Virus record (IMG/VR): IMGVR_UViG_3300035698_012504
Coordinates: 186,694 to 250,693 of that record
DNA length: 64,000 nt
Source: a virus
Strand: one strand, 5' to 3'
Made by a program: the position numbers and the translations under genes. Position 1 is the first letter of the stretch, and each line of letters opens with the position of its first letter. Positions 11,322 to 41,790 of this stretch are shown here, piece after piece. The notes under the pieces are model-generated. The model was not told where the DNA came from. It worked only from the letters and a program-made list of their open reading frames with translations, and did not search any database.

Positions 11322-12201
11322 AGGTTTGTACCTCCAATCCCTCTAAGAATTTTTTAAATTCTTCTTTATTATATTTTGCATTCTTCCTCAAATTTTCTTT
11401 AGCTGGAAGAAATTGTAAATTGCTTTCATGATTTATTAATTTTAAATCATAAATATTATTATCTGTAAATGCCTTTATAGGAAAAATATGATCAACATGA
11501 ATATTTGGATTATTAATATTATTCTTTTTTCTGAGTTTTCTCTTATAACTATTACTTAAACTTTGTAGTTCTAGAACTATTCTTATTTTTTTCCTATCTG
11601 GATTCCACATATATGAATTTGATCCAGACAATGCCTCTATTTTACACCTTCTACATTTAACACCATTTAATAAACTACTAAGTGATATTTTAGTAGGATT
11701 TCCACATGAACATAATGAATCTACAGAATCATTATATCGTACATATTTCCCAATTAATTTAAATCCTCTTTCTTCAAACAATTTAAACACTTCTTCCTGT
11801 GTATATTTAACATTCCCTGAACAATTCATACATCTCCGACCAGCCTTAAATGATTTAAGTTGTGTTTTAGATATATTTCCACATGAACAACGGTATCTTA
11901 ATGTTTTTGCATTGTTACCGTCATATATGTCTAACAATTCACAACCACTATCTATAAACGTATTCTCCACCTCTTCTTGAGACAATCTCAGCTTCGACCC
12001 TACGTTTCTATAATGACATTTTTTACATCTTTTTTCGTTATGTATAAATGAGCTTACTTGTATAATAGATTCGTTCCCACATGGGCAAATATATTTTACT
12101 TTAGATCTTGATGTAATACTATCGGAATATTCTTCTAATAATACACCACCTCTTTTTTCAAATTCTTCTTTTATCTTATAGTAACCTAGGCATTTACCCA
12201 T
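11314..12201 (-). CDS. HNH endonuclease with 3 tandem Zn-ribbon (C-x-C-G-N ... R-C-x-x-C) modules; probably a free-standing homing endonuclease
   Basis: Repeats read Y.C.CGN.S...F..G.RC..C. The C-terminus has HVDHIFPIKAF...NLQFLPAKEN, an HNH motif. Confidence 0.75.
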   Translation of the reverse strand: MGKCLGYYKIKEEFEKRGGVLLEEYSDSITSRSKVKYICPCGNESIIQVSSFIHNEKRCKKCHYRNVGSKLRLSQEEVENTFIDSGCELLDIYDGNNAKTLRYRCSCGNISKTQLKSFKAGRRCMNCSGNVKYTQEEVFKLFEERGFKLIGKYVRYNDSVDSLCSCGNPTKISLSSLLNGVKCRRCKIEALSGSNSYMWNPDRKKIRIVLELQSLSNSYKRKLRKKNNINNPNIHVDHIFPIKAFTDNNIYDLKLINHESNLQFLPAKENLRKNAKYNKEEFKKFLEGLEVQTCV

Positions 12202-13782: not shown

Positions 13783-14553
13783 TTATACTTTTTCCTCAAC
13801 GTAATTTTTAAACTGAGTTGAATTATATTTTCCCTGTTTGCTTAGATTTTCCTTAGCTGATAATAGTTGTAAATTATCTAATGAATTAATAACTTTAGGA
13901 TCGGTAATTCCATTTTCAACAAATGCTTTTACTGGAATAATATGATCAACGTGATAATGATACGAATCCTCTTTCCAAGCGTCAAACAAAGGATCTTTCC
14001 TTAAATGGTTTAAAAGATCTTCTCCAGAATATCCAAGTAATTTATATGTTTTAGTATTTTTTAACTGACCTGTAGATTTTAAACTATGTCTTATTAACGA
14101 TTTTGATAAACTTCTTACTCTTTCTTTTAATTTTATATACTCTCTATCAATAATCCAATTATGATTTTTTCGACCTGACTTTATTATTGATCTATATTTA
14201 TTTGCACACTTCATACATCTTTTTCCATTTTTAAAATTCGAAAAAGATATTTTAGATATGTTTCCACATTTACATATATATTTAACAGGATCGTGAGATT
14301 TTTTATATATTCCTAATAACTCGCAGTTATTATCTCTAAAATATTGAGATACATACTTTTGTGAATATTTAGGAGTTCCGGAACATTTCATACATCTGCA
14401 TCCTTGCCTAAATTTATCAAAATTTATATATGATATATTACCACAAGAACATTTATATTTCATCTTAGTTTTAGCATTCTTATAAAAAGATAGTAATTTA
14501 CAATCATTATCTTTAAAATACTTTTCTATATATTCCTGAGAATGTTTCTTCAT
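13783..14553 (-). CDS. HNH endonuclease with 2 tandem Zn-ribbon modules
   Basis: Two KYKCSCGNIS...RCMKC modules. The C-terminus has HVDHIIPVKAF...NLQLLSAKEN. Confidence 0.75.
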   Translation of the reverse strand: MKKHSQEYIEKYFKDNDCKLLSFYKNAKTKMKYKCSCGNISYINFDKFRQGCRCMKCSGTPKYSQKYVSQYFRDNNCELLGIYKKSHDPVKYICKCGNISKISFSNFKNGKRCMKCANKYRSIIKSGRKNHNWIIDREYIKLKERVRSLSKSLIRHSLKSTGQLKNTKTYKLLGYSGEDLLNHLRKDPLFDAWKEDSYHYHVDHIIPVKAFVENGITDPKVINSLDNLQLLSAKENLSKQGKYNSTQFKNYVEEKV

Positions 14554-16234: not shown

Positions 16235-17053
16235 TTATGATGTGTATGGTGCGTAATCTCCTGACTCGGCTTCGCCATATACCTTACCAATTTCACCACC
16301 ATCGGTGACACCATTCCAAGCTTTACCATAGAATATATCAGATAGATCTTGAGCGTTACTTAATACCCAATCTTCGTGCCATAAGTAATCACAGTTAAAG
16401 TCTATATCTATTTCTAATTTATCATTAGTTGTAATATCAGAACTAAGTAAATCAGTAGGATCTTTCTTCGGGAACATACCACTCATACAAGATGCATATT
16501 CTACAAGATGACCATCAGGTTTAGTAACCCAGTAATACATTGTTGCAGCATATTCTGTCTTGATATATGCACCATCCCCATCTTTTTTTCCACCAGAGTC
16601 TAGAGGTGTAACTCCAGATCTGTAATCTCTAATCATTCTTGTCCAACCATGGAAGATAGCATGAATCGGAAGTGAAGAGAGTTCTAGGAACCTAAGTGTT
16701 ACAGTATTATCCCACTCTACATTAGTAGGGACTGCCCACTTTACTCCACCTAGTCCAACAATATCAGTAGTGTTTACTGTTCCACCAGGAATAGTAACTG
16801 ATAAACAAGTTGAATGTAGAGTACTAGCAATAGATTTAAGACCATCGTCACCTTTACCAATACCATCTGGGCCTGCGGCGTGGGATACATTATTGGCCAA
16901 TTGCTTAGGTAGGTATGAAAAATGGATGAAAAAATAACCTGAGATAAAAGGTTCTACTGCACTGTTAGTAGTACCAAACTTTCTTGTAAATCTATTTTGA
17001 AATCCGTGTAGTGATGCGAAACTATTAGAAACTGACATTATTAAATCCTCCAA
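16235..17053 (-). CDS. Virion structural protein (first gene of the minus-strand structural block; tail-tube/baseplate-like, unassigned)
   Basis: 272-aa ORF. The promoter-like motif lies 40 nt upstream, and a hairpin at 16167..16202 follows the gene on the minus strand. Confidence 0.45.
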   Translation of the reverse strand: MEDLIMSVSNSFASLHGFQNRFTRKFGTTNSAVEPFISGYFFIHFSYLPKQLANNVSHAAGPDGIGKGDDGLKSIASTLHSTCLSVTIPGGTVNTTDIVGLGGVKWAVPTNVEWDNTVTLRFLELSSLPIHAIFHGWTRMIRDYRSGVTPLDSGGKKDGDGAYIKTEYAATMYYWVTKPDGHLVEYASCMSGMFPKKDPTDLLSSDITTNDKLEIDIDFNCDYLWHEDWVLSNAQDLSDIFYGKAWNGVTDGGEIGKVYGEAESGDYAPYTS

Positions 17054-18053: not shown

Positions 18054-18130
18054 GCCCCAATAGCTCAGCTGGATAGAGCGACGGCCCTCTAAGCCGTAGG
18101 CCGCAGGTTCGAGCCCTGCTTGGGGTGCCA
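18054..18130 (+). tRNA. tRNA-Arg (anticodon TCT)
   Basis: Cloverleaf: acceptor gccccaa/ttggggt, D arm tagctcagctggatagagc, anticodon arm acggc-cctctaa-gccgt, T arm gcaggttcgagccctgc, CCA encoded. Confidence 0.8.
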
Positions 18131-18162
18131 TTTTTTTCGAAGAACAAACGAAGGAGGATATC

Positions 18163-18621
18163 GTGCAGGTAATTAAAGTAGGAACGTTCGTTCGATATTT
18201 CGACGCTGAACGAGGCGTCATAATTCATGGACAAGTGGATGGATTCCAAACAGTTGGTAAGATCAATGTTGTTCCCTTTGATGGAACAGACGATCAAGTT
18301 GCAATTGAGGATACTCAAATTGTATGCTTCTCCAACGAAACGGGAGTCTGTCCCACCAGAGATGGATCGTATATCCCATATTCCTTTTTCGCAAAAAATA
18401 AATATCCTTTGGCCGCAAAGGCAGCATTAAGAGGAATCGTAGAACCGCTTCGGGAAGAAGAACCTATCGACGATGAACCACATGATCATTCGGGGATCGC
18501 TGAGGGAGATGGGGTAGGTGTCGAAGATGTAGTAGTCCAGCCCAAGAAGAAGGTAATCACTACGCTGGATACGGATGCGATCCTTCACAGGAAGGGACGA
18601 TTCGGTAGAAGTTACATGTGA
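18163..18621 (+). CDS. Hypothetical protein
   Basis: 152-aa ORF between two tRNA genes with an RBS-like GAAGGAGGA. Confidence 0.4.
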   Translation: MQVIKVGTFVRYFDAERGVIIHGQVDGFQTVGKINVVPFDGTDDQVAIEDTQIVCFSNETGVCPTRDGSYIPYSFFAKNKYPLAAKAALRGIVEPLREEEPIDDEPHDHSGIAEGDGVGVEDVVVQPKKKVITTLDTDAILHRKGRFGRSYM

Positions 18622-18630
18622 GTGAAGCAT

Positions 18631-18707
18631 GGGCGGATAGCTCAGTTGGTTAGAGCGCGACACTGATAATGTCGAGGTCGAAGGTTCAATTCCTTCTCCG
18701 CCCACCA
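18631..18707 (+). tRNA. tRNA-Ile (anticodon GAT)
   Basis: gggcgga/tccgccc acceptor, tagctcagttggttagagc D arm, cgaca-ctgataa-tgtcg anticodon arm, gaaggttcaattccttc T arm, CCA. Confidence 0.85.
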
Positions 18708-18907
18708 TTTTTAAGAGATGAAGGATATGCTCGATACGTTCTTGTAAATAATGAAAGACATTGGGAACTTATACCTAAGGCAGAACTAACACCAGAGAAA
18801 CCAGTACCGATCCTACCTACTGGATACTGGTGTTGGATATCGGAAGACGGAAAGATTATTTATACTGAGAGAGATCAGTGGGATAAAACCCCTAACCTGG
18901 AGGAAAT

Positions 18908-19471
18908 ATGGAAGTCACTGGCTATACCATAAGAGAAGCATTAAAGTATTGGAATTTAAAATTAGAAGCATTGAGTGAACAGTTCCCAACAACAATCTTT
19001 GGATTTGAAGGCGACGAGGAAGCAGATCCAAGCGATTTATTTGTAGAAATAGTTGAGGCAGAATCAGCAATTGTAAGATTACAAACATTACAACAAAAGT
19101 ATAACCTTAGTATTGAGGTTATTATTAAAGATACTAATCAACATCGCTCTGTTATGCCATTGGCAACAGCCATAAAAATAGCTGGGTATATGGGGAGATT
19201 TGAAAAACTATGGAAAACTTCCATGTCTACTTCTAAGGGTAGAGGCATGTTTGGAGAACGATTTGGGGGAGGCGGTGCCGAGACCAGGAAGGTAGACGAC
19301 ATGGTAGCCAAACGGAGAATCTCAATCGTGGCATGTAGAAATAATTCATTAAGCTTTTCTAAACTTGCAAGTGCCTGTAGATCTGTTATTGCAGAAGCAA
19401 ATGGTACCGCTGTAACTCTCGGAGAGGGAGAGTTCGTAGGTTTTGACGACTCATTGTTCAGTGTCCTCTAG
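18908..19471 (+). CDS. Hypothetical protein
   Basis: 187-aa ORF. Confidence 0.4.
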   Translation: MEVTGYTIREALKYWNLKLEALSEQFPTTIFGFEGDEEADPSDLFVEIVEAESAIVRLQTLQQKYNLSIEVIIKDTNQHRSVMPLATAIKIAGYMGRFEKLWKTSMSTSKGRGMFGERFGGGGAETRKVDDMVAKRRISIVACRNNSLSFSKLASACRSVIAEANGTAVTLGEGEFVGFDDSLFSVL

Positions 19472-19735
19472 GATTACTGGATGATGACGAGTCCGCTGAG
19501 ACGTTGAAAACCTCCTTGGTCAAAGGAATATACCTCCACTGGTCATCCGTATCACCGATGCTCACAAACCAGCCCGCATGATTCTTGAAGAGCGGAACTT
19601 AACTGGTACCAATAAAAGGTGTAGACGAGACCAATTCCTAGCTCATTGCTGTTCAACGTCTCAGCAACTTTTTTAATTCGTCTGTAAAATGTATGTATAT
19701 AGAAGGGATTTAGATTTTGAAAAAAAGGAGAAAGA

Positions 19736-20971
19736 ATGTTTAAGAAGATTATGTCGTTGGTATTAGTTTCGTTCATGGTAATCAGTTTAACTGCTGCAGC
19801 ACAATCATATGATTACTCACATAGAAAATCATCTGCTACCATCGAGGTAACAGATTTGAGTGGTAATGCTGCGCCCGGCGTGAGTGTAGAAGTCACACAG
19901 ACCGGTCACGAGTTCCTATTTGGTATGGGTCCAGGAGTATTCTATAAACCAGAACTCCTGGATAAAGTTGATGATGTCTTCAACAATGCTACACTCGGGT
20001 TGTATTGGTCTAGCTTAGAAAGCCCACAAGGTACCTATAAGTTTCCAACACTTCAGATCCAGGTAGATTGGTGCAAGACAAGAGGGTGGCCTATGAAAGG
20101 ACATCCAATTCTTTATACTATAGCACAACCAACATGGGGCGCTACGCCAGAAGCACAAATAGAACATATTAATAAACTATTAAATGAATATGCAGATGAC
20201 TTTATGTTCTGGGATACGGTGAACGAACCTATTAATAATCCTGGAATAGATATAGGATCTGTTCATTCTTATATAAGAACATTACCATACAATGACTTGA
20301 AGATAGGAATTAATGAATATGGAATCCTTGGTGGTTGGTTGAATCTTGCTACTATACTGAAAGGTGTTGGAAGCCAATTTGACTATGACTATGTAGGAAT
20401 TCAGTCTCATATTCCAGACGATAAAGAATATGATATTAATTATATAAAATCAAAGATAGAAGAATTTAATGATCTTGGAAAACCTATTCACATTAGTGAA
20501 GTATCTGTTCAGTCCGCTGGTGGAATTTGGAATGAAACCAATCAAGCAGACTATGCAGAGAAATTATATAGATTGTATTTCTCAATACCCTCAGTAGAAG
20601 TTATTACCTGGTGGAGCATTCCAGATGGAGATCCTTGGAAACCTACGATTGGATTATTCAGAACGAATGGTACATCGAAGCCAGCATTCGATAGATTGAA
20701 AAATCTTATTACAAATGAATGGTATACTAAATTAACAGTTGAATCTAATAGTGAAGGTAAAGTAATATTTAATGGGTTCCGTGGCAATTATAAAATATTG
20801 GTAGAAGACGTAGAGGTTCCGCTTACTTTAGATAAGAGTAATCCTACTGTTACAGTCGCGGTTGCTGTTGAAGTAGTTGAACCAGAACCCGATCCTGAAC
20901 CGGATCCGGAACCAGTTCCAGAACCAAAACCAAGGAAAAGATGGTGGAAATTCTGGAGATGGGGTAGATAG
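19736..20971 (+). CDS. Secreted glycoside hydrolase (clan GH-A, GH5/GH26-like) with Pro-Glu repeat linker and Trp/Arg-rich C-terminal tail
   Basis: N-terminal signal peptide MFKKIMSLVLVSFMVISLTAAAQS. VNEP catalytic acid/base motif and ISEVSV nucleophile motif. C-terminus EPEPDPEPDPEPVPEPKPRKRWWKFWRWGR. Confidence 0.6.
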   Translation: MFKKIMSLVLVSFMVISLTAAAQSYDYSHRKSSATIEVTDLSGNAAPGVSVEVTQTGHEFLFGMGPGVFYKPELLDKVDDVFNNATLGLYWSSLESPQGTYKFPTLQIQVDWCKTRGWPMKGHPILYTIAQPTWGATPEAQIEHINKLLNEYADDFMFWDTVNEPINNPGIDIGSVHSYIRTLPYNDLKIGINEYGILGGWLNLATILKGVGSQFDYDYVGIQSHIPDDKEYDINYIKSKIEEFNDLGKPIHISEVSVQSAGGIWNETNQADYAEKLYRLYFSIPSVEVITWWSIPDGDPWKPTIGLFRTNGTSKPAFDRLKNLITNEWYTKLTVESNSEGKVIFNGFRGNYKILVEDVEVPLTLDKSNPTVTVAVAVEVVEPEPDPEPDPEPVPEPKPRKRWWKFWRWGR

Positions 20972-20975
20972 ATAG

Positions 20976-21347
20976 ATGGAATACTTTACCATGGGAAGTG
21001 ATCATGTTTATCCATTGGGGGAAAAATTCGTAGTGGATTACTATATCTCTGGTACTTGTTCCACTGGCAAAGCCTATAGGCTCCTTGAGACATTAATTAA
21101 TACATTGACGTTCGTTAGAACATATGACCGGAGTTATAAACGACAACAATTAATTTTATTAAAGACATGGCACGACAGAATATGGAATGCTATTGAGTTA
21201 GGATATATTGATAATAAGACTGATGACGATTTAAGAATATTTCTTCCTTCTGAAATGCATCCCAAGAGGGATAAAAAAGTTCGAATGGATTTTCTAAGGG
21301 ATCAGTTACACCGACTGATCTCTGAAAACGCAGGGCTTATAATTTAG
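20976..21347 (+). CDS. Hypothetical protein
   Basis: 123-aa ORF. Confidence 0.35.
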   Translation: MEYFTMGSDHVYPLGEKFVVDYYISGTCSTGKAYRLLETLINTLTFVRTYDRSYKRQQLILLKTWHDRIWNAIELGYIDNKTDDDLRIFLPSEMHPKRDKKVRMDFLRDQLHRLISENAGLII

Positions 21348-21355
21348 GAGGAAAG

Positions 21356-21490
21356 ATGGATATACATCCTGTCCAGAAGAAAAAAGGATTTACATTAATA
21401 GAATTGATAATTGTTGTTGCCATCCTTGGAATATTAGCACTCGGGGCAATTGTCGCTGGTGTTATATTGTTTATGTTCATTCTTTCATAA
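21356..21490 (+). CDS. 44-aa prepilin-like peptide (type IV pilin/pseudopilin N-terminal motif)
   Basis: This ORF is absent from the track because it is under 60 aa. A strong RBS AGGAGGAAAG precedes the ATG. It translates to MDIHPVQKKKGFTLIELIIVVAILGILALGAIVAGVILFMFILS, which carries the G-FTLIELIIVVAI signature of prepilin cleavage/methylation domains. Confidence 0.45.
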   Translation: MDIHPVQKKKGFTLIELIIVVAILGILALGAIVAGVILFMFILS

Positions 21491-21594
21491 AGGAGATTAA
21501 TGCAGTATTGTATTGGTTGTGGATTACCAATTCGCGAAGGATTTGTGAATTGTATAAAATGTAAAATAAAAGAAACTAATGAGGAGAAAGTGGA

Positions 21595-21978
21595 ATGCCT
21601 AGAGGTAGACCGGCAAAATTAATGACCGCAGATTTAGAAAAATTTAACAAAAAATTACAGGCTACTTTGGTTAGAAAATTAGAATCAGATGATAGTGATA
21701 ACGAATCACTTATCGAATTAGCGATGGCTGGTAGATTTCTACATCAAGTAGACCAAAGAGATTCTGGAAAAATTTCAATAGAGTTGAGAAAAGTTGATGG
21801 ATCGGTTGCACATACTTTATACATTGAACCTGAAGATAGTGAATTACTAGCAGAGTTGATGGCAGATGATGCCAATGAAGTCCTAGTAACGAGTACTAAT
21901 CCTCCTAGCGATACTGAGATCCTTAGTGAAATCATGGCGGAAGATAAAGACTCAATAGACGAAGAGGTTCCCATCTAG
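21595..21978 (+). CDS. Acidic hypothetical protein
   Basis: 127-aa ORF with an RBS-like GAGGAGAAAG. Confidence 0.4.
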   Translation: MPRGRPAKLMTADLEKFNKKLQATLVRKLESDDSDNESLIELAMAGRFLHQVDQRDSGKISIELRKVDGSVAHTLYIEPEDSELLAELMADDANEVLVTSTNPPSDTEILSEIMAEDKDSIDEEVPI

Positions 21979-22000
21979 AGGAACTTAATGTTTTTGTTTT

Positions 22001-22134
22001 GGAGGAGTAGCTCAGTTGGTAGAGCGCATGCCCGTAAAAATGCCCTATTCGATATTTTCCCCTTCAAGGGTTATGAGGAACAGGGTTACTTCGCAAAAAG
22101 CAAGAGGTCGCCAGTTCGAGTCTGGTCTCCTCCA
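22001..22134 (+). tRNA. tRNA gene with a ~60-nt insertion in the anticodon-loop region (candidate intron). Anticodon tentatively GTA (Tyr) if the insertion sits at the canonical 37/38 position.
   Basis: Perfect acceptor stem ggaggag/ctcctcc. Canonical D arm tagctcagttggtagagc and T arm gccagttcgagtctggt. Between them lie 75 nt instead of 17+5, namely catgc-ccgtaaa-[60 nt]-a-gcaag. Confidence 0.5.
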
Positions 22135-22192
22135 AAACAATTTATTTAAATAATATATTAAAAGAATTTAAAATTCTTTTATATTAAAAATT

Positions 22193-22208
22193 TTTAGGAC
22201 AAATAAAA
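22193..22208 (+). promoter_or_regulatory. Promoter-like motif (GGACAAA core) upstream of tRNA-Asn
   Basis: tttaggacaaataaaa. Confidence 0.35.
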
Positions 22209-22211
22209 AGA

Positions 22212-22287
22212 TCCGGGGTAGCTCAGTTGGTAGAGCGGGTGGCTGTTAACCATCAGGTCGCAAGTTCGAACCTTGCTCCCGGAGCCA
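22212..22287 (+). tRNA. tRNA-Asn (anticodon GTT)
   Basis: tccgggg/tcccgga acceptor, tagctcagttggtagagc, ggtgg-ctgttaa-ccatc, gcaagttcgaaccttgc, discriminator G, CCA. Confidence 0.8.
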
Positions 22288-22315
22288 TTTTTAAAGAGAG
22301 GGAGATTGGAGAGTT

Positions 22316-22594
22316 ATGGCTACAACTAGAGAAGATATCCAAAGCTGGATAGACGAATCAGGTGATAACCAATTTCTAATGATTGTATGTGATACATTTG
22401 ATTGGGAAGATTATCCAGTTAGAGTAAACGATGAAGCTCATTTAATTTCAGAAGTAAAAAGAATTAGGTCTGTTGGTATGCAGAAGATAATGGAAGTATA
22501 TAATCTCTCTGGAGACGTACCAAAACAACTTAGTCAACATAGATCTTGTGAAGTTCCCAGATCTGTTCTTGACGAAACCGGAGCTATACTCTAA
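22316..22594 (+). CDS. Hypothetical protein
   Basis: 92-aa ORF. Confidence 0.35.
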   Translation: MATTREDIQSWIDESGDNQFLMIVCDTFDWEDYPVRVNDEAHLISEVKRIRSVGMQKIMEVYNLSGDVPKQLSQHRSCEVPRSVLDETGAIL

Positions 22595-23253
22595 TGGAAA
22601 TGTCTGATATTCTTTACGCCCCAACCATTGCAGATGATAGAGATCGGGAAATATTTACAGCATTTGAATTATTCATACACGATTGTATATTCGGTGGGTC
22701 ACTAATCGAAGCAGCAGCAAATAGACATTTTCATACAATCTTTCCTAATTGTAATGCTTATGCGACAGCAGTAAGATACTTCAAACCCAGTATATCATTA
22801 TTAATAAACCATCTAGCTTTTAGACATGCGCTCGAAACGTATGCTAAAACTAAGAATTTTGAAGCTTGTAAAACAAATGTATGGAAATCAGTACCCGGTA
22901 ATACATATAATACATACACTGGATATACTTTTAAAGATATAGTAGGTGCAACTAATAATTACTGGTTGAATACAAGATGTAAGAGTTATATAGAATTATT
23001 TGAGATATATGGATCTGTTATAAGAAGAATAGAAGACGATGCTATTGAGCGCGGCCTACATCCACAATATGCTCCACATGTAAAAAATATGAGAGGCATT
23101 TATTACATTAGTAAAATTCTTCTTGGTGCCTATGGTGCTTACGAGGTAATGGATAAGATGAGAAATATAGCACTACTGTTTTCAAACGGAAGAAGTACAG
23201 ATGTAATTATGAAACACTTCCTAAGTAAAGGAATTGTATTCGAAGACATTTAA
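22594..23253 (+). CDS. Hypothetical protein
   Basis: 219-aa ORF. Its start overlaps the stop of the previous ORF (ATGA). Confidence 0.4.
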   Translation: MEMSDILYAPTIADDRDREIFTAFELFIHDCIFGGSLIEAAANRHFHTIFPNCNAYATAVRYFKPSISLLINHLAFRHALETYAKTKNFEACKTNVWKSVPGNTYNTYTGYTFKDIVGATNNYWLNTRCKSYIELFEIYGSVIRRIEDDAIERGLHPQYAPHVKNMRGIYYISKILLGAYGAYEVMDKMRNIALLFSNGRSTDVIMKHFLSKGIVFEDI

Positions 23254-23271
23254 TGTAAGACATATTAAAAA

Positions 23272-23362
23272 GCCGGGGTCGCATAGTTGGTCGATTGCAC
23301 CGGACTTGTAATCCGGATGGCTTTACGCCGCATCGTAGGTTCGAATCCTACCCTCGGCTCCA
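23272..23362 (+). tRNA. Type-II-shaped tRNA (18-nt variable arm, 3-bp D stem) with anticodon TGT (Thr-decoding) and discriminator U
   Basis: gccgggg/cctcggc acceptor, ccgga-cttgtaa-tccgg anticodon arm, variable arm atggctttacgccgcatc, T arm gtaggttcgaatcctac, CCA encoded. Confidence 0.55.
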
Positions 23363-23441
23363 TTTTTAATATATATGTTCATCCAGAATCAACGGATTGA
23401 GATTGGGCAGGGTTGTTTAAAAGAAACAAGAGGTGATAAGT

Positions 23442-23747
23442 ATGAACGAGGCAGGGCCATGGAGATTCAAGTACCAGCTTTCTGAGGAGCAAATGAAAGC
23501 AGTAGGCACTGAAATACATAGAAAGATCCACGGGGAAATTATAACAATCGGAGTAGATAAAAATGATTCGATTGTGGAATTGATTGGAGACAAAGGCATG
23601 GAACTTCATCTTGTTGATGGGAATGGTCTGTCAAATAGCGAACTTGCTCTGCTGTTCCCAGTCGACCACTTGAAGATACTTGGAAAGTTATGTATCTTCG
23701 TTGGGTCTCTTATTGATATGGGAACAATTCCAAAGGCAACAATGTAG
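23442..23747 (+). CDS. Hypothetical protein
   Basis: ORF with RBS AAGAGGTGA before the ATG at 23442. Confidence 0.35.
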   Translation: MNEAGPWRFKYQLSEEQMKAVGTEIHRKIHGEIITIGVDKNDSIVELIGDKGMELHLVDGNGLSNSELALLFPVDHLKILGKLCIFVGSLIDMGTIPKATM

Positions 23748-23838
23748 ATTTCTCAGTGGGGGTGTGGTGGAATTGGCAGACACGCGAGACTCGTACGGTT
23801 ATCGCAATCATCAGTGTATTCCTGATTTGGACTATTAT

Positions 23839-23853
23839 TTTGAGGACAAACTC
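23839..23853 (+). promoter_or_regulatory. Promoter-like motif (GGACAAA core) upstream of an HNH gene
   Basis: ttttgaggacaaact. Confidence 0.35.
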
Positions 23854-23872
23854 TTAAAAGGAGAGTTCTCGA

Positions 23873-24463
23873 ATGAGTTGGAAATCCAAAGAAGAAAGAC
23901 GCTGTATTGATTGTGATAAAAAGGGTGTTGTAGAAAGAAGACGGTGTAAGGAATGTGTTAAAGAATACAATCGAGCGCGTGCGAAGGAAAGACACGCTCG
24001 GTTGGGAAGACACAATTATGGTATATCCACATGTCCTATATGTGGAAAACCCATGACAATGTGGAGAAAGACCCAGGCAACGCATGCTACATGTATACCT
24101 AAAACGACTGGGGATTATAACTTAGTCGGGAGGTCTCCATCTGGCAGAACATTGGGTCGACAGAAGATGATTGACGCTGGCGTCGATGTCCCAACCGAAT
24201 TCGTTGTTCACCATCTGGACGAAAATCCAGATAATAACGATCTTGGGAATTTGATAGCAGTGAGGCGGTCGTCACACACAACCCTACACAGAAATCTACA
24301 GTATCATAGGTCGCTGTTCCTGAAAGAGAACAGTAAGTATTCCGAGGATTGCTGGAAACCCCTTAGAGATCATCTAACCAAAGCATGGATGGAAACGTCG
24401 AGTGCGAAGGTTCTAAAAATAGATGATATTGGGCAATCAGCAGCCGAGCCTCTAAACTCCTAA
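23873..24463 (+). CDS. HNH endonuclease
   Basis: Cys-rich N-terminus, then VVHHLDENPDNNDLGNLIAVRRSSHTTLH (HNH motif). The GGACAAA promoter-like motif lies 25 nt upstream. Confidence 0.7.
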   Translation: MSWKSKEERRCIDCDKKGVVERRRCKECVKEYNRARAKERHARLGRHNYGISTCPICGKPMTMWRKTQATHATCIPKTTGDYNLVGRSPSGRTLGRQKMIDAGVDVPTEFVVHHLDENPDNNDLGNLIAVRRSSHTTLHRNLQYHRSLFLKENSKYSEDCWKPLRDHLTKAWMETSSAKVLKIDDIGQSAAEPLNS

Positions 24464-24600
24464 TAAGGAGCAAGAGGAAGGTTCAGAGGCCATGCACGGA
24501 ACACCTACGTCCAGATTGGATATGGTGAAGATATGGTCCAGACTTCAACAATCGATGTCTTTAGATTGGTTGGTGAAAGCCAATGAGGTATGTAAAATCT

Positions 24601-24645
24601 CGTGATCGCAAGATCGTGTGGGTTCGATTCCCACCATCCCTACCA
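24601..24645 (+). tRNA. tRNA 3' fragment: hairpin + T arm + 3' acceptor strand + CCA. No matching 5' half adjacent.
   Basis: cgtgatc-gcaa-gatcgtg hairpin, gtgggttcgattcccac T arm, catccct-a-cca. A possible 5' partner gggggtg lies about 840 nt upstream at 23768. Confidence 0.4.
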
Positions 24646-25065
24646 TTTTATATTATACCCAGTTGCCCATTTTCTAACTGCGTTATCTGAGACTTTGTAC
24701 TTTCTACCCAACGCCGAAAAAGAACTATTTCGAATTTCAAGTTCTAATATTTCTTTTGTTGGGCGTGATACTTTTCTTGGGCGAAGTTTACCACTACATG
24801 ATTTACATCTAACTGCACCTGCAGATATATGTTTATGACAATCAATACACACATTGATTTGTAATTTAGGTCTTACTTTAGATGTCTTTTGTTTGATCAC
24901 ATTTTTCCGACCCCTATATGTAGGTGTCTGTGCATGACAGTTCGGGCATATAATTCTTAAATTTTCCAATCTATTATCATTATTAATGCCATTAATATGA
25001 TCTAATTCCAGAGAGATAGGTTTATTATTCCATTCGGTTAGTCCACACATCTCACATACATACAA
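24640..25065 (-). CDS. HNH endonuclease
   Basis: DHINGINNDNRLENLRIICPNCHAQT HNH motif plus a C-terminal CxxC zinc ribbon. Confidence 0.7.
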   Translation of the reverse strand: MYVCEMCGLTEWNNKPISLELDHINGINNDNRLENLRIICPNCHAQTPTYRGRKNVIKQKTSKVRPKLQINVCIDCHKHISAGAVRCKSCSGKLRPRKVSRPTKEILELEIRNSSFSALGRKYKVSDNAVRKWATGYNIKW

Positions 25066-25299
25066 TTTAAACCCTTCTTTTATTAATCTCTCTCTAAGTT
25101 TAGACGAACTGATACTATTTCCTTTATTTGTTGAGAGCTTTACAAAATTCTATAATTCTCTTAATGTGGTGACTCTTGTTAAAACAGTAATATGTATTAT
25201 TGGAATTGGATTATATATTATGGCGGCGAGTAATCCAGATATACTGAAGCGTTCTCCACAAACCGAAGAGGTAATATCAACTGAAGAGGAACCTAATGT

Positions 25300-25713
25300 A
25301 TGAAAGTAATTCTGTTAGGCATCGTAGCTTTAGCAATTGCAGTGCTTCTCGTTATGAACAACAATGAAAAATTGAAGGGGTATCTTCAGAAAGCAAAAGA
25401 ATTTATTTCTAATGGTACAGATGGAATGATTGCTATATCGTTTGCATTGATATGTGTGAATTTACTTCAGTTTGTATACTGGGCTAGGTATTCAGAGATG
25501 TTATCTTTCTTCGTATTACCTTGTGTCCTCTTCTGTGTATTAGTTGGGGTAATTATATTATTCACATGTATGTATGCAGATCAAGAAAGAGAAGATCCAA
25601 TGAAACTTGTTCCCAAAGTATTAGTTGGTGTTATCGGAATAATAAGTCCCATCATATTCTCTCTTACACTTATAATAGATATAATGGTTAAGACATACGT
25701 AAACAGCTTGTAG
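25300..25713 (+). CDS. Small membrane protein (3-4 TM helices)
   Basis: 137-aa hydrophobic ORF. Confidence 0.4.
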   Translation: MKVILLGIVALAIAVLLVMNNNEKLKGYLQKAKEFISNGTDGMIAISFALICVNLLQFVYWARYSEMLSFFVLPCVLFCVLVGVIILFTCMYADQEREDPMKLVPKVLVGVIGIISPIIFSLTLIIDIMVKTYVNSL

Positions 25714-25718
25714 CTAAA

Positions 25719-25796
25719 TGAGGTGTAGCTCAATTGGATTAGAGCACCAGAATTTGGATCTGGATGTTGGAGGTTCGAGTCCTCCCACCTCATCCA
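25719..25796 (+). tRNA. tRNA-Gln (anticodon TTG)
   Basis: tgaggtg/cacctca acceptor (U1-A72), tagctcaattggattagagc, ccaga-atttgga-tctgg, ggaggttcgagtcctcc, CCA. Confidence 0.8.
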
Positions 25797-25826
25797 ACAC
25801 AACCCCCGAACCCAAGGAGAAGACAA

Positions 25827-26675
25827 GTGGCAATTAGAGGGAAAAACACTCAGCTCCTGGTCATCGATCCACAGGTGGACTTTTGTGATCCGACCGGAGC
25901 CCTATTTGTACCTGGCGCTGTGGAAGATTCAGTCCGCCTTGCGACAATGATCGACCGACTAGGAACCGGTATCAAAGATATCCACATTACACTGGATTCG
26001 CATACCCAACTTGACATTTCCCATATTATGTGGTGGAAGTATGTGGATGGCCAAGCAGTCAAGCCGTTCACCGTAGTCATTACGCGGCATGGTCGGATAT
26101 ACGGAATGGAGATCAACCTGACGGATGGTTCTCTTGGACCGGAACGCGAACTCATCACGGCGGCTCCCTTCGCGGCGCAGAGGACTCTCGACTATCTGGA
26201 AGCTCTCGAGAAGAGCGGGCGGTATGGTCACACAATCTGGCCGGATCACTGCATCATCGGATCAGTGGGTCACAGCATAACCCAATCCATCTTCGATGCC
26301 GTTCTTGGTTGGGAACAGAAGATCTTCGGTAGAGCCCAGCGAGTCGTGAAAGGCTCCAACATCTGGACCGAACACTTCGGTATCGTCAAGGCTGAGGTGC
26401 CCGATGACACCGACAGCTCGACACAAGTCAACACGAAGCTCATCGATATCTTGATTGCCGCAGACGAAGTGTTTCTTGCCGGGCAAGCGTCCACCCATTG
26501 CGTGGCAAATTCCGTGATGGACATCGCAGATGAATTCGGTGACGAGAACATTCACAAGCTCATCCTTCTCGAAGATGCGACTTCACCCGTTCCCGGATTC
26601 GATGCCCTGGAAGCTGACTTCAAAGCGAAAATGACTGCGCGGGGCATGCAGTCCGCCAAAACCACAGACGTATAA
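25827..26675 (+). CDS. pncA: Nicotinamidase / pyrazinamidase (isochorismatase-fold, PncA-like)
   Basis: GTG start after RBS AAGGAGA. The stretch LLVIDPQVDFCDPTGALFVPGA matches the PncA N-terminus (LLVDLQNDFC..GALAV). Conserved Cys context GQASTHCVANS. GC-rich gene. Confidence 0.7.
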   Translation: MAIRGKNTQLLVIDPQVDFCDPTGALFVPGAVEDSVRLATMIDRLGTGIKDIHITLDSHTQLDISHIMWWKYVDGQAVKPFTVVITRHGRIYGMEINLTDGSLGPERELITAAPFAAQRTLDYLEALEKSGRYGHTIWPDHCIIGSVGHSITQSIFDAVLGWEQKIFGRAQRVVKGSNIWTEHFGIVKAEVPDDTDSSTQVNTKLIDILIAADEVFLAGQASTHCVANSVMDIADEFGDENIHKLILLEDATSPVPGFDALEADFKAKMTARGMQSAKTTDV

Positions 26676-26689
26676 GGAGACAGATACAA

Positions 26690-27481
26690 ATGCCTTCATT
26701 CGAAGATATGGTAGACCAAAACATTACGGGAAGCGAATTCCATTTCTCCTCAGTAAATATTGACAAATTAGACGAGCTCAAGTACACGGTCGCAAACATC
26801 TCCGCCGACGTAAGCGGTAGTATGTGGGGGGAAGAAGCCAAAGTCGATGAGGCGTTGCAGCGGATTATCAAGACATGTCAAAATGCTGCGACAGCCGATA
26901 ACATCCTTCTGAGGCTCATTGCATTCAACAACTCCGTGCAGGAAATCTTCGGGTTCAAACCGATCCACACGATTACCCCTGCTGATGTCGCAGTGCCGTC
27001 GCCCGGTGGAGGTACGGCACTGAATGATGCCGTGTTCAGTTCGGTAGGTGCCGTGGAAGACGAATGCGTCCAACTCTTTGATCAGTCCTGTGATACCAAC
27101 GGCATCGAGGTTATTATCACGGACGGCTATGAGAACTCGAGCAAATCAAGCAACAAGAAGGTTCGCAATCGGATCAAATCGATGAAGAAAAACGAGGCGA
27201 TGGAGTCGAACATCAGTATCCTCGTTGCAATGGGTTGCGACACCAGCACCGACAAAGCATACTTCACCAAGTTGTGCACGGACCTTGGCATCGATCACTT
27301 CTTGCCGTTCCCGGACATGACCGAGGCGACGTTCGGCAAGTTGGTCCAGCTCATCTCGCAGTCGATCAGCTCACAGAGCAAGGCGCTTGGGAACGGTGGT
27401 CCTTCTCAGATCATCAACCCACTTACCGGCGCAGTGTCCCAGCCTGTTACGGGTGGGGCTTCAGTGAGTCTCTCGATATAA
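26690..27481 (+). CDS. von Willebrand factor A (vWA) domain protein, TerY-like
   Basis: MIDAS motif DVSGSM, then GGTAL and ITDG motifs. GC-rich like pncA. Confidence 0.7.
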   Translation: MPSFEDMVDQNITGSEFHFSSVNIDKLDELKYTVANISADVSGSMWGEEAKVDEALQRIIKTCQNAATADNILLRLIAFNNSVQEIFGFKPIHTITPADVAVPSPGGGTALNDAVFSSVGAVEDECVQLFDQSCDTNGIEVIITDGYENSSKSSNKKVRNRIKSMKKNEAMESNISILVAMGCDTSTDKAYFTKLCTDLGIDHFLPFPDMTEATFGKLVQLISQSISSQSKALGNGGPSQIINPLTGAVSQPVTGGASVSLSI

Positions 27482-27548
27482 TCCGCAGATCCTTGGGGGT
27501 GGGGGGTCGAAAGACCTTCTGCCTCCACCATCTTTTAGGAGGTACGCC

Positions 27549-28430
27549 GTGATAACTAGCGATGCGTTTTTGGCAATTGGTGCCACTCACGCAATGTGTG
27601 AAGATTACATCAGAACTGGAATCATTGGACAACACATAGGAGAAGATGTACCATTTGCCATAGTTTCAGATGGATGTTCAGGTTCTCCAAATACAGACAT
27701 AGGGTCAAGACTCTTAACAATTGCTGCAGAGAAAACAATTAAAACTATTCATTCACTTAATTCTGCTCTTTCATTTGGAACCGATTATCGTAGCTTAGGA
27801 TTTATAATCTCTAACGAAGCCAATCAGCTGAATGCTGGTAATACTGTAACTCCAAAACAATGTCTTGACGCAACATTAATAATGATGGCTGGTATGAAAA
27901 CTGTATATGTTTACGGAGACGGATATATTATTCTACAATTCACAAGTGGAAGAATTATAATTATTGAACTAAGTTGCTATAAAGGTGCACCTCCGTATCT
28001 TTCTTATCAAACTCAGCCCGAGAGATTGGACATGTATAATAGTAAAGTCCCGAAGGCAGCCATTAAAGTGAAAGCCTGGGAACTAAATGGGGGACCAGTA
28101 ATAGAATTTAATGGATGGGAATTTGGGTACCAGGGTGGTAAGTTTCAATTCAATGTATCCGAGCTTATCCATGTTGATATTGGTTCCTTCGAAGAAATAA
28201 CAACCACATTAATTTCATCTGATGGACTAGGTTCGTTTATTCATGTTCCAACTGGAGAGCAAGTACCAGTTGATGATATAGTTGCAAAACTATTTGATAG
28301 GATGCCTAATCATGGGAAGTTCATTCAGAGAAGAGCTAAGCGGGTTCTCAAGGAACTTGCAAAGGATCAAATAGTCCACAACGACGATGTCTCTATCGCC
28401 GGTATGACATGGAGGGAGGATCAGGTATGA
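27549..28430 (+). CDS. PP2C-like (PPM) Ser/Thr phosphatase (putative)
   Basis: GTG start after AGGAGG. GATHAMCEDY (motif 1-like), FAIVSDGCSGS (motif 2, DGHGG-like) and LISSDGLGSF (C-terminal DG motif). AT-rich gene. Confidence 0.5.
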   Translation: MITSDAFLAIGATHAMCEDYIRTGIIGQHIGEDVPFAIVSDGCSGSPNTDIGSRLLTIAAEKTIKTIHSLNSALSFGTDYRSLGFIISNEANQLNAGNTVTPKQCLDATLIMMAGMKTVYVYGDGYIILQFTSGRIIIIELSCYKGAPPYLSYQTQPERLDMYNSKVPKAAIKVKAWELNGGPVIEFNGWEFGYQGGKFQFNVSELIHVDIGSFEEITTTLISSDGLGSFIHVPTGEQVPVDDIVAKLFDRMPNHGKFIQRRAKRVLKELAKDQIVHNDDVSIAGMTWREDQV

Positions 28431-28560
28431 TGTTTAAAATCTTTCTATGCGTAATAGCATTTCTTGTAGTATCTTATTTCGTTACATATCCAGAAGAGAT
28501 TCCAAGAGACTTCAAAGATTTGTTTGAGAAGTTCAAAGGGAAAGATAAGGATGATAAATA

Positions 28561-30312
28561 ATGGCTGCGATATCTGTTATAAATGAGGCGACAGGTAAAA
28601 CAGTTAAGTTGAAAGATAAACAATTCTTGGCTTCTGGAGGAGAAGGAAAAGTATTTCTAGTCAATGGAGTAATATATAAAGTATGCCATGATATATCTAA
28701 TATGATACCTAAAGAAAAAATACAGGAACTATGGGCGCTGTCGTCTCATGGAAATATTGCTTGTCCAGAAGATATTCTTGTAACATCCAATAAGGCAAGA
28801 ACACCAATAGGATATACTTCCAAATTCATACCAAACTCTATCCCTATTGCTAAGCTTGTCTCGAATGGGTTCAGAACCAAACAAGGATTTGGTGCAGAAC
28901 AAACTGTAGAATTAGTAGAGAGTTTAGTTAAGATGGTTAAGTTTGTTCATTCTCATCCAGGAATTTTGATAGTAGATCTTAATGAATTTAATTTCCTAGT
29001 CAATGAATTGAAGTTAACAGACCCATTTGCAATTGATGTTAATTCATGGCAGACACAGAACTTTCCTGCTTCTGCTATAATGCTACATATAATAGATCAT
29101 AAGACCAGTAAGTTTTCAAAGTTAACAGATTGGTTTTCATTAGGAGTTGTATCTACTATGTTGTTCTTAGGAGATGGTCCATACGGAGGAAGACATCCGA
29201 ACTTCGCTGCAAGAGATATCAAAGCAAGACAAGCAGCAACCGCTTCCATATTTGGACCAGGCGTAACCCTTAATAAGAATATAAGATCATTCGATGTTAT
29301 TCCAGATCAGTATAGAAGCTGGCTGGAGTCAATGTTTCAAAAAGGAATGAGACTTCCTCCTCCTGATGTGTTGGGACTGATGAGTCTGGAGAGCATCGTA
29401 GTGAAATTACTTACTGGTAGTGACTTATTTGAAATAGTAAAATTGTCAGAATATACTTCTGATGTTATTGAATGGCGCTCCGTTAATAATACAGTGATAT
29501 GTATTACAAAGAACTCATTGATTGTAGGGAATGAAAGCAAAAAAATTAGACGGAATGATTTAGATGTAGTAGTAACTGATGAATCACGTACACCAATTGC
29601 TATCGCTATTAAGAAAGATTCAACTACCTCAGGATTACCATCAGGATACGGTCTACTTTCTCTGGTGAATTTCTTAACAAATGATCCTATAGGTGGAGCA
29701 TCCTTGGCTGCGAAAGGATTCTTTGTTGCTGGTAATAGAATATATGTTCTCTCAGTAGATAAAGTAATTGAATTAGGTATTCGTGAAATGGGAAGTAAGA
29801 TAGTTGCTGCTGTTAATAAAGAGTGGGCATTTCAAAGCTTGTCAAGTACAGTATATTCTGGATTAATATATTCTGACATATTCGGCAAACCATACCTTAC
29901 AATCCCATATGCTGTAGGAAAATGTCTGAAGCGACACTTCCCAGAACTTGACGGGATCAAAATTACAGACGCCAAATATGAATCAGGTGTCGCATTTGTA
30001 ATAGGTGCAGACCAGGATGGTAAATATAACAAATATATATTTGTGTTCGATGAGAAACACAGCACACACACTACAATAGAAGAAAAGGATATTACTCCAA
30101 GCGATATAAATTTCACTGTTCTTGATAATGGAACGGTTGCATATATAGATTCAAATGACGCACTGGTACTCTTCAAGAAAGATGCACCAGATAAACGAAA
30201 AGAAATAAGAGACCCAGCCGTACATGGCGGGATGACTCTAACGAAAAGAGGGACTCAGGCAATGGCATTTGTAGGCAAGACGGTCTATACCATTTCCATG
30301 AAGACCCCATAG
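28561..30312 (+). CDS. Protein kinase-like (Ser/Thr kinase fold) protein
   Basis: Gly-loop SGGEGKVF, VIYKV lysine, HSHPGILIVDLNEFNFLV catalytic-loop-like segment. It has a long C-terminal extension. Confidence 0.5.
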   Translation: MAAISVINEATGKTVKLKDKQFLASGGEGKVFLVNGVIYKVCHDISNMIPKEKIQELWALSSHGNIACPEDILVTSNKARTPIGYTSKFIPNSIPIAKLVSNGFRTKQGFGAEQTVELVESLVKMVKFVHSHPGILIVDLNEFNFLVNELKLTDPFAIDVNSWQTQNFPASAIMLHIIDHKTSKFSKLTDWFSLGVVSTMLFLGDGPYGGRHPNFAARDIKARQAATASIFGPGVTLNKNIRSFDVIPDQYRSWLESMFQKGMRLPPPDVLGLMSLESIVVKLLTGSDLFEIVKLSEYTSDVIEWRSVNNTVICITKNSLIVGNESKKIRRNDLDVVVTDESRTPIAIAIKKDSTTSGLPSGYGLLSLVNFLTNDPIGGASLAAKGFFVAGNRIYVLSVDKVIELGIREMGSKIVAAVNKEWAFQSLSSTVYSGLIYSDIFGKPYLTIPYAVGKCLKRHFPELDGIKITDAKYESGVAFVIGADQDGKYNKYIFVFDEKHSTHTTIEEKDITPSDINFTVLDNGTVAYIDSNDALVLFKKDAPDKRKEIRDPAVHGGMTLTKRGTQAMAFVGKTVYTISMKTP

Positions 30313-30322
30313 GAGAACGCCT

Positions 30323-41789: not shown

Positions 41790-41790
41790 T

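Follow-up and report, generated by a model that had tools for sequence, protein, structure and literature searches.

A divergent GH10 glycoside hydrolase gene with an acidic proline-rich linker and a tryptophan/arginine-rich C-terminus in a large contractile-tailed phage

Solved members of glycoside hydrolase family 10 (GH10) include AcXyn10A (PDB 8B73), an endo-β-1,4-xylanase of Acetivibrio clariflavus, and XynA (7D88); of the endo-xylanases that have been characterised biochemically, one is 41% identical to 8B73 and one 89% identical to 7D88. Carbohydrate-active genes also turn up as auxiliary genes of viruses and have been listed in virome surveys of soil, mangrove, rumen and fermentation. 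Quite separately, cationic peptides are known to act at membranes: in the hexapeptide RRWWRF, made up largely of tryptophan and arginine, Trp inserts into the bilayer interface and Arg binds anionic head groups (PMC2937036), and phage phiKT disrupts the outer membrane at lysis with gp28, a free cationic peptide (bioRxiv 10.1101/515445). Here we describe a phage gene that brings elements of these systems together. It lies in a 64,000-nucleotide stretch of viral DNA (IMG/VR record IMGVR_UViG_3300035698_012504, positions 186,694 to 250,693; hereafter the window) and encodes a GH10 protein with a predicted signal peptide at its N-terminus and, at its C-terminus, an acidic Pro-Glu linker followed by a cationic Trp/Arg tail.

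On balance, and with moderate confidence, we read this protein as an auxiliary, exported enzyme of the GH10 xylanase type that would be tethered to an anionic cell envelope, with products that the infected cell would use. This reading starts from a complete reading frame, membership of GH10, conserved catalytic machinery, the fold, the phage context of the gene, a phage-borne lineage of relatives and the recurrence of the tail within that lineage; export, action on xylan, anchoring at the envelope and a benefit to the phage would follow if the sequence features behave as those of their known counterparts do.

Family, fold and active site

The encoded protein is acidic, 411 amino acids long and 43 kDa in mass, and its C-terminal end reads ...EPEPDPEPDPEPVPEPKPRKRWWKFWRWGR. 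A first-pass annotation, made from the DNA letters, had described an open reading frame (ORF) here with a (PE)n linker and a Trp/Arg tail, and the translation matched that description exactly. The identical protein occurred on contigs of 152 kb and, independently, 6 kb; the one other assembly (a contig of SRR5581654, L001) was independent and 100% identical across 5.3 kb. No strain variants from which selection on the tail might be gauged were present in IMG/VR or in the JGI metagenome set, and no DNA-level match to the phage was found among GenBank phages.

The protein belongs to GH10, in clan GH-A. The Pfam profile PF00331 (Glyco_hydro_10) matched residues 90-322 with 82 bits (gathering cut-off 22.1; E = 5.8e-23), and an exhaustive HMMER search recovered 3608 relatives with identities of at most 39%, of which 1389 had E <= 1e-10. 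Among solved proteins, the xylanases 8B73 (E = 2.8e-27) and 7D88 came nearest in sequence. An AlphaFold2 (AF2) model based on a 58-sequence alignment reached a predicted local distance difference test score (pLDDT) of 90.1 and a predicted template modelling score (pTM) of 0.84, and all of its top 50 Foldseek matches in the PDB were GH10 xylanases, at E-values down to 3.6e-31; the match to 8B73 (TM-score 0.74) ran over the full length (408 columns) and included the accessory domain. Profile and fold together thus narrow the clan GH-A hydrolase of the first-pass annotation to family GH10.

In the model, strands on the N- and C-terminal sides of the catalytic barrel pair into an accessory β-domain, an extension also found in 8B73 and 7D88. 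The barrel itself holds His123, Asn163-Glu164, Asn193/Tyr195, Gln223/His225, Glu255, Trp293 and Trp301. The phage enzyme is compact, several barrel loops being deleted in comparison with relatives of the 8B73/7D88 type.

The acid/base residue, Glu164 (codon 20225-20227), stands in an NEP motif (residues 163-165) at the end of strand β4 (AF2 strand 158-163), and the nucleophile, Glu255 (codon 20498-20500), in the sequence IHISEVS (ISEV being residues 253-256) at the end of strand β7 (AF2 strand 251-257). Structure 7D89 is the inactive E182A/E280A mutant of 7D88, and its mutated positions align with E164 and E255. In an alignment with S. lividans Xyn10A, N127/E128 correspond to N163/E164 and E236 (within 'aitEld') to E255, so that the NEP acid/base and ISEV nucleophile proposed at first pass are borne out by both comparisons. 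The same alignment pairs the β3 His H81 with H123, the β8 Trp residues W266 and W274 with W293 and W301, and the β6 Gln-x-His with Q223/H225; N193/Y195 are the counterparts of the β5 Asn/Tyr of Xyn10A, with β5 assigned from AF2 strand 189-194. Conservation was read in four alignments of relatives (A1-A4): the catalytic and −1/+1 subsite residues were invariant or nearly so across 58 relatives, and E164 and E255 were invariant.

Judged from these alignments, the protein very probably works as a retaining glycanase whose −1 site is xylanase-like, and is most likely an endo-β-1,4-glycanase that acts as a xylanase on xylan or xylo-oligosaccharides. The xylanase part of this assignment draws on the characterised relatives and on the CBM60 modules of the nearest cellular homologues. 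Those homologues (34-39% identity) are exported multidomain proteins that carry a xylan-binding CBM60 at the N-terminus and, at the other end, Ig-like, dockerin, RTX or PKD modules. In named genomes, the cellular relatives come overwhelmingly from Planctomycetota, Verrucomicrobiota, Hydrogenedentota and allied metagenome-assembled genomes, at 30-35% identity. The phage enzyme is in sum a very divergent member of GH10, and otherwise of an ordinary kind.

Predicted signal peptide, linker and cationic tail

By inspection, the N-terminus consists of a basic n-region (MFKK), an 18-residue hydrophobic core (IMSLVLVSFMVISLT) and an A-x-A site (AAA before QS), and the AF2 model has a helix at residues 2-18 at low pLDDT. 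Homologues without a signal peptide begin at the equivalent of residue 25: the cytoplasmic ones start M-x-x-DYSHRKS, and the window protein reads YDYSHRKS directly after the predicted cleavage site. Because the conserved domain starts right after the A-x-A site, the putative signal peptide is an add-on to that domain; this position, with the n-, h- and c-regions and the A-x-A site, agrees with the signal peptide called at first pass. By these rules a Sec signal peptide is credible, and the enzyme is predicted to be exported; alternatively, the segment may be an uncleaved signal anchor.

Beyond the accessory β-domain the chain runs into a linker of 21 residues, predicted by AF2 to be non-globular coil, with a net charge of −8, and then into the tail, with a net charge of +7 (+6 in the last 12 residues). 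Given that the catalytic core (net −17) and the linker are both acidic, the tail is the sole cationic patch of the protein. It has four Trp in nine residues, against a Trp background of 1.0%, and no other plausible gene of the window has such a Trp/basic stretch, the further matches being short out-of-frame segments inside larger genes; the linker is likewise the only (P[ED])n run within the window. The tail contains KRWWKF, which differs from the synthetic antimicrobial hexapeptide RRWWRF by conservative R-to-K changes, and the computed Wimley-White interfacial free energy of the last 12 residues, −3.3 kcal/mol, is similar to that of tritrpticin. The resemblance to Trp/Arg-rich antimicrobial peptides that was noticed at first pass therefore extends from the motif to comparable charge and partitioning energy. 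With these properties the tail is predicted to partition into membrane interfaces, and it probably sticks the enzyme to the cell envelope. Searches with the C-terminus itself added little: NCBIfam gave weak TonB matches at residues 369-402 (E 0.6-1.4), the linker had a weak PARP-repeat match, and a word search with the 40-amino-acid C-terminus returned 23 candidates, none significant, an uninformative outcome for which low-complexity filtering is probably to blame.

The PEP tripeptides ahead of a basic cluster recall a PEP-CTERM/exosortase-type sorting signal, or some other processed C-terminal anchor. PEP-CTERM proteins are common in Planctomycetota and Verrucomicrobiota, the phyla from which the nearest cellular relatives come. 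Among 150 representatives of a wider list of relatives, one (P0122) has a PEP-CTERM-like end, VPEPGAMSALAVVVLALARRR, two end in a transmembrane helix and a basic tail, and one cellular protein ends in a manner similar to the window protein (...SLFGWFFRRR); C-terminal anchoring devices do, then, arise in this family. The window protein, however, has no hydrophobic transmembrane stretch between the PEP and the basic cluster and matched neither TIGR02595 nor any other curated C-terminal sorting model at E <= 10, and a phage gene of this sort would depend on an exosortase of the host. The missing transmembrane segment largely rules out a PEP-CTERM signal, and we regard a sorting signal of this type as extremely unlikely.

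A second idea takes the linker and tail as a masked pro-peptide, in which proteolysis past the linker would free a Trp/Arg antimicrobial peptide of 11-14 residues to act against the outer membrane of the host or against competing bacteria. Anionic pro-regions are known in antimicrobial peptides, the compensation of charge between linker and tail is near-exact, KRWWKF is close to an active hexapeptide, and a phage-encoded cationic lytic peptide exists. Against this, no protease site or partner was identifiable for the protein, no data point to cleavage, and the tails of its relatives are less like antimicrobial peptides (GGLLGLLSRLFRRR); we hold such a precursor to be very improbable.

A survey of every complete GH10 ORF in the retrieved loci, 163 in all, bears on whether the tail has any function. 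Right past the β-domain, 153 of them stop. A short Pro-rich extension with a cationic/aromatic end was found in only three, all of them phage-borne (rough Fisher p about 2e-4): the window protein (...PEPKPRKRWWKFWRWGR), P0045 (...PAPAPSIPWWKRLFSR) and P0054 (...PTQPSSGGLLGLLSRLFRRR). P0045 and P0054, which are 31-33% identical to the window protein, have a Pro-rich linker and then an aromatic/basic end of 10-14 residues, and about 150 cellular relatives are without such a tail. In a rough neighbour-joining tree, P0045 and P0054 are sisters and the window protein falls with untailed phage enzymes, so the tail was gained at least twice or was lost repeatedly.

This distribution has to be set beside the possibility that the enzyme is a genuine exported GH10 whose linker and tail are functionless, either the remnant of a linker to a lost carbohydrate-binding module (CBM) or dockerin, or an accidental 3' extension in which purine-rich DNA serves the ribosome-binding site of the next gene. 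The tail-coding DNA does have GGAG/GGGG just 5' of the next ATG, and Trp/Arg-rich strings also occur in out-of-frame translations of the window. Cellular relatives often have a linker and then further domains, as in P0010 (PTPDPEPEPEPQP before a dockerin), the pLDDT of the tail is low, and the one sequence at hand gives no sign of purifying selection. What argues for a function is the same architecture in two other phage GH10s of such low identity and its absence from the cellular relatives, together with the extreme composition of the tail and a charge that almost offsets that of the linker. We accordingly give a functionless tail a low probability.

Read-through of the GH10 stop codon (TAG) would meet an in-frame TGA after just 9 codons, and the frame of the downstream ORF is closed by its own TAG immediately 5' of its ATG. 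These two stops rule out a hidden C-terminal domain reached by stop-codon recoding or a simple frameshift, and no domain is therefore concealed beyond the linker. The downstream ORF itself (123 amino acids), considered as a candidate detached CBM, gave an uninterpretable single-sequence AF2 model of mixed alpha/beta structure (pLDDT 55).

A bolder reading gives the tail an active part: some members of a large-phage GH10 lineage would have gained, probably repeatedly, a membrane-active cationic peptide on a rigid stalk, and this tail would actively breach or cross the outer membrane, or be freed as an antimicrobial peptide from an acid-masked precursor. We lend it only slight credence. If it were true, the tail might allow self-promoted release of a periplasmic enzyme or serve a disruptin-like egress step, and these proteins would be natural counterparts of the engineered enzyme-peptide fusions known as 'Artilysins'.

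Phage context, phage-borne relatives and proposed role

The window comes from a large contractile-tailed phage with a genome of at least 152 kb. Tail sheath, tube, baseplate and fibre genes flank the block that contains the GH10 gene, in keeping with the phage origin proposed at first pass; baseplate wedge and hub genes, an M23-peptidase-bearing protein of 1176 amino acids and several HNH endonucleases are also present. In its sheath, the phage shares 25-30% identity with the jumbo phages PBS1/AR9 and phiR1-37, and IMG/VR fragments reach ~50%. A Shine-Dalgarno site comparable to that of the GH10 gene was found in 31 of the 48 window genes, which argues weakly against a Bacteroidota host.

The GH10 gene sits inside a plus-strand block (17.4-45.5 kb) between minus-strand structural modules, and the nearest structural gene is 2.7 kb away on the opposite strand. 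The block also holds ten tRNAs, genes for nicotinamide phosphoribosyltransferase (NAMPT), NAD synthetase, a cytidylyltransferase-like protein, a DHH phosphoesterase and a kinase-like protein, and small membrane proteins. Its position marks GH10 as an auxiliary gene rather than one for virion or lysis functions. The gene is flanked on either side by viral hallmark genes and its cellular homologues are xylanases, which brings it within the operational definition of a viral auxiliary metabolic gene (AMG). Its immediate neighbours in the window have no recognisable function: they gave no lysis-related Pfam or PHROG match, and no holin, endolysin, spanin or fibre gene was seen among them. PADLOC returned no defence or anti-defence match for the GH10 gene or its neighbours, and the upstream neighbour, sought for a synteny comparison of moron insertion, had no relatives in IMG/VR.

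Besides the CBM60-bearing proteins, the relatives include a second group of small proteins (343-436 amino acids) without a CBM. Of 11 that were looked up, ten were in phage-type contexts (Table 1); P0039, on a short contig, was uninformative in this respect. A phage-borne lineage of compact GH10 genes thus exists, and in a rough neighbour-joining tree the small phage-borne proteins stand apart from the cellular ones. These genes of large phages are often found beside genes of nucleotide metabolism. In four otherwise different phage contigs (L004, L006, L007/L008, L179) a dCMP deaminase gene lies 1-3 genes from GH10; none was recognised next to GH10 in the window. Fourteen small relatives, when aligned, diverged too much for a pattern scan. 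No PHROGs family matched the catalytic domain, a collection of 50,697 phage genomes yielded one distant match (26% identity), and IMG/VR held relatives at 22% identity only; among the BFVD viral structures there was no GH10-annotated match, the best being GH5 at 13-15% identity. In the literature, neither a GH10 lineage specific to phages nor a cationic-tailed GH10 was found to have been described, matches being mostly to other families, e.g., GH108. As far as we have found, then, the recurrent compact GH10 lineage in large uncultured phages is new, and so is the joining of a Pro-rich stalk to a short putative membrane-interface peptide, seen in three members of the lineage.

The first-pass annotation had suggested a depolymerase or a lysis/entry enzyme. 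In such a role, as a lysis/egress accessory or a depolymerase, the GH10 domain would cut a β-1,4-linked polysaccharide in the envelope or capsule of the host or in a biofilm matrix, and the tail would bind or perturb the outer membrane or cell wall. There are documented precedents both for phage enzymes that end in a cationic amphipathic segment and for a free cationic phage peptide that disrupts the outer membrane (PMC10053066, bioRxiv 10.1101/515445). The recurrence of GH10 in large phages suggests a phage-specific use, most phage-lineage GH10s, including P0045 and P0054, are like canonical endolysins in having no signal peptide, and in L007/L008 the third gene upstream of GH10 encodes an SLT domain (L010 has such a gene too). 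For the window gene, however, we found no positive support for such a role. Peptidoglycan cleavage is not known for any enzyme of the CAZy family GH10 or of clan GH-A, and no bacterial envelope polymer is known as a GH10 substrate. GH10 is the sole domain of the protein, which has no peptidoglycan-hydrolase domain and no virion-attachment domain; its fold is a TIM barrel, and virion depolymerases are typically β-helical. The gene lies among tRNA and NAD-salvage genes, outside the tail-fibre/spike, baseplate and lysis modules, with no lysis gene adjoining it in the window, which covers 64 kb of a genome of at least 152 kb. The protein has a predicted Sec signal, a feature not normally seen in virion proteins; its characterised relatives are endo-xylanases, and its closest cellular relatives are xylanases that carry CBM60. 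A part in lysis or depolymerisation is thus conceivable, and in our judgement unlikely.

For the auxiliary, envelope-tethered enzyme that we prefer, the sequence of events would be as follows. The phage would express a Sec-exported GH10 enzyme of the xylanase type as an auxiliary (moron/AMG-type) gene, and the signal peptide would be cleaved off after export. The Trp/Arg tail would lodge in an anionic interface, either a membrane leaflet or another polyanionic layer of the envelope, and the Pro-Glu stalk, rigid, acidic and some 6 nm long when extended, would keep the acidic catalytic domain off the surface. The enzyme would then stay cell-associated rather than diffusing, and its products could feed sugar uptake by the host throughout the lengthy infection cycle that a large phage has. 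Such a role would be consistent with the surrounding NAD-salvage and tRNA genes, which also sustain host metabolism.

Several observations weigh against this picture. The signal peptide was called by rule and inspection rather than by a trained predictor, and AF2 gives the tail no structure (pLDDT <50). A single sequence of the exact gene is known, the other assembly being identical. P0045 and P0054 have no signal peptides; their tails would therefore contact the membrane from inside the cell or come into play post-lysis, which fits an export anchor less neatly. Finally, the classical −2 subsite is altered (in Xyn10A numbering, ENxxKW of β2 -> TLGLYW, W85 -> Y127 and Q88 -> A130), and substrate specificity could therefore differ from that of textbook xylanases; since the replacement of ENxxKW (TLxxYW) is common to the solved xylanase 8B73, family membership is not contradicted by it.

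Table 1. Features of the GH10 gene and its product, tail genes of the window, and contexts of small phage-borne GH10 relatives.
Feature	Position	Strand	Description and basis
Complete GH10 gene	19736-20971	+	ATG to TAG, 411 codons plus TAG; ORF list and translation
Shine-Dalgarno AGGAG	19726-19730	+	5 nt 5' of ATG; read from sequence
Sec-type signal peptide (predicted)	19736-19801	+	Residues 1-22, MFKKIMSLVLVSFMVISLTAAA; predicted cleavage AAA-QS; no lipobox Cys
N-terminal β-strands	19814-19909	+	Residues 27-58; AF2 strands 31-39 and 50-58, pLDDT >95
(β/α)8 GH10 barrel	19910-20725	+	Residues 59-330; Pfam, AF2 (pLDDT mostly 93-98), Foldseek
C-terminal β-strands	20726-20863	+	Residues 331-376; AF2 strands 332-375; align with 8B73 C-terminus
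Acidic Pro-Glu/Asp linker	20864-20926	+	Residues 377-397, AVEVVEPEPDPEPDPEPVPEP; sequence, charge count
Cationic Trp/Arg tail	20927-20968	+	Residues 398-411, KPRKRWWKFWRWGR; sequence; net +7
Tail tube	16235-17053		Structural gene
Tail sheath	45632-47350		Structural gene
P0017			With GIY-YIG, PhoH
P0019, P0159			With HNH, dCMP deaminase, SLT, scaffold and tape-measure genes
P0021	Contigs up to 186 kb (locus from 38.7 kb contig)		Beside PIF1 helicase
P0032			With Cpn10, dCMP deaminase, PARG
P0045			Adjoins phage-type RNA ligase
P0054			With multisubunit RNA polymerase beta subunit, Macro, SLT, QueC
P0059			With NYN, NT5C, NUDIX, Acb1-like ligase, dCTP deaminase; has signal peptide
P0134			Adjoins phiKZ-type Gp80 genes

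Other genes of the window deserve mention in their own right. Two genes 3' of GH10, a 44-amino-acid ORF (MDIHPVQKKKGFTLIELIIVVAILGILALGAIVAGVILFMFILS, 21356-21490, plus strand) with a strong AGGAGG site has the prepilin N_methyl motif (Pfam, 38.7 bits; cut-off 21.2); beyond the motif there is just a hydrophobic stretch, the head domain of a pilin being absent. The product might be a minimal pseudopilin, acting against a type IV pilus or type II secretion system of the host or making use of it. The block also has an apparent NAD+ salvage set on the plus strand, comprising the cytidylyltransferase-like protein (37406-37951, a possible NMN adenylyltransferase), nicotinamide phosphoribosyltransferase (40236-41789) and NAD synthetase (41740-43722), the last two ORFs overlapping by 50 nt.

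The ten tRNAs (Arg, Ile, Asn, Thr, Gln, Pro, Met twice, Cys and Ser) lie within 18054-37383 on the plus strand. The tRNA-Thr (23272-23362) is unusually long at 91 nt, and ORF 25764-26675, as listed, starts inside the tRNA-Gln (25719-25796), so that its true start is probably further downstream. G+C content is 49-50% at 26001-28000 and 32001-34000, against 31-33% in the minus-strand structural modules; a tRNA cluster and a gene for a DUF7873 protein (33221-34018, Pfam 180 bits) belong to the second of these stretches. Genes of the homing-endonuclease type are numerous. ORF 31693-32136 (minus strand), which lies upstream of the tRNAs of 32.2-33.1 kb, looks LAGLIDADG-like by eye ('AGLFDGEGS'). 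Three HNH paralogues (phrog_559) lie in or beside the structural modules (11314-12201, 13783-14553 and 48652-49914, all on the minus strand), and an HNH_3 protein lies in the auxiliary block (23873-24463, plus strand).

At 34375-36394 (plus strand), four small ORFs of 142, 102, 112 and 94 amino acids have, by eye, long hydrophobic stretches like those of membrane proteins and are broken by a soluble 86-amino-acid ORF; three of them (35435-36394) are contiguous or overlapping, look paralogous and might be holin-like or serve superinfection exclusion. A 583-amino-acid protein (28561-30312, plus strand) gave a sub-threshold Pkinase match (27.5 bits; cut-off 31.7) and could be a phage Ser/Thr kinase. 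In the 2751-amino-acid ORF at 51729-59984 (minus strand), a lone short segment (residues about 865-945) matches phage fibre-like families, and the product is presumably a giant tail fibre or decoration protein.

Comparison with known systems

The solved 'extended' xylanases AcXyn10A (8B73) and XynA (7D88/7D89) share with the window protein the family, the (β/α)8 barrel with its accessory β-domain, and an identical catalytic Glu pair and −1 subsite. They differ from it in sequence (22-25% identity), and neither structure has a Pro-Glu linker or a cationic tail; relatives of the 8B73 type are, unlike the window protein, cytoplasmic and without a signal peptide. The secreted CBM60-GH10 xylanases come closer in sequence, with up to 39% identity over residues 27-375 and the same accessory β-domain, and many of them are exported. 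They are cellular proteins, however, with a CBM60 and extra C-terminal modules, and the about 150 surveyed end without a short cationic tail. As a small, loop-trimmed and highly divergent enzyme (39% identity or less), the phage protein may interest enzyme engineers.

For the linker, the nearest likeness is the (Glu-Pro)n/(Lys-Pro)n spacer of TonB, in which an EP/DP run is followed by KP and basic residues and which is likewise expected to be an extended, rigid spacer; the likeness is one of composition only, far below cut-off, and the window protein has no TonB domains. The basic terminal domain (BTD) of the fibrolytic enzymes of Fibrobacter succinogenes is a longer domain than the window tail. 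It is found on exported plant-cell-wall hydrolases that share with the window protein a basic C-terminal segment, and we cite it as an analogy only (PMC3079729). No curated model matched the window tail.

Trp/Arg peptides such as RRWWRF ('Combi'), the lactoferricin core RRWQWR, indolicidin and tritrpticin resemble the tail in composition, charge and computed interfacial energy. They are free peptides of 6-13 residues, whereas the motif in the window protein closes an acidic enzyme of 43 kDa and follows a rigid, acidic linker, which makes anchoring more plausible than killing. Gram-negative endolysins with C-terminal helices like those of antimicrobial peptides, the phiKT gp28 'disruptin' and the engineered Artilysins have in common with the window protein that an enzyme or peptide carries a cationic segment, membrane-active in their case and putatively so here (PMC10053066, PMC4161244, bioRxiv 10.1101/515445). 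Those systems, in contrast, work together with peptidoglycan hydrolases of lysis cassettes, whereas the window gene encodes a GH10 with a predicted Sec signal and has no lysis genes near it. If the tail does prove membrane-active, fusions of enzymes and peptides could take it as a natural template, and its 12-14 residues would be a candidate antimicrobial or a tag for anchoring.

The phage GH10 gene fits into a known category, that of virus-encoded carbohydrate-active enzymes (CAZymes) carried as auxiliary genes, in which a glycoside hydrolase for plant polysaccharides stands between viral genes and outside the structural and lysis modules, as it does here. Virome surveys usually list phage CAZymes without asking where the enzyme finally resides. 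In the present case the sequence suggests a device for localisation, made up of a signal peptide, a rigid acidic stalk and a Trp/Arg interfacial peptide. If an active xylanase were held in this way on the infected cell, the system would provide a testable case of a phage that reshapes the access of its host to plant polysaccharide.

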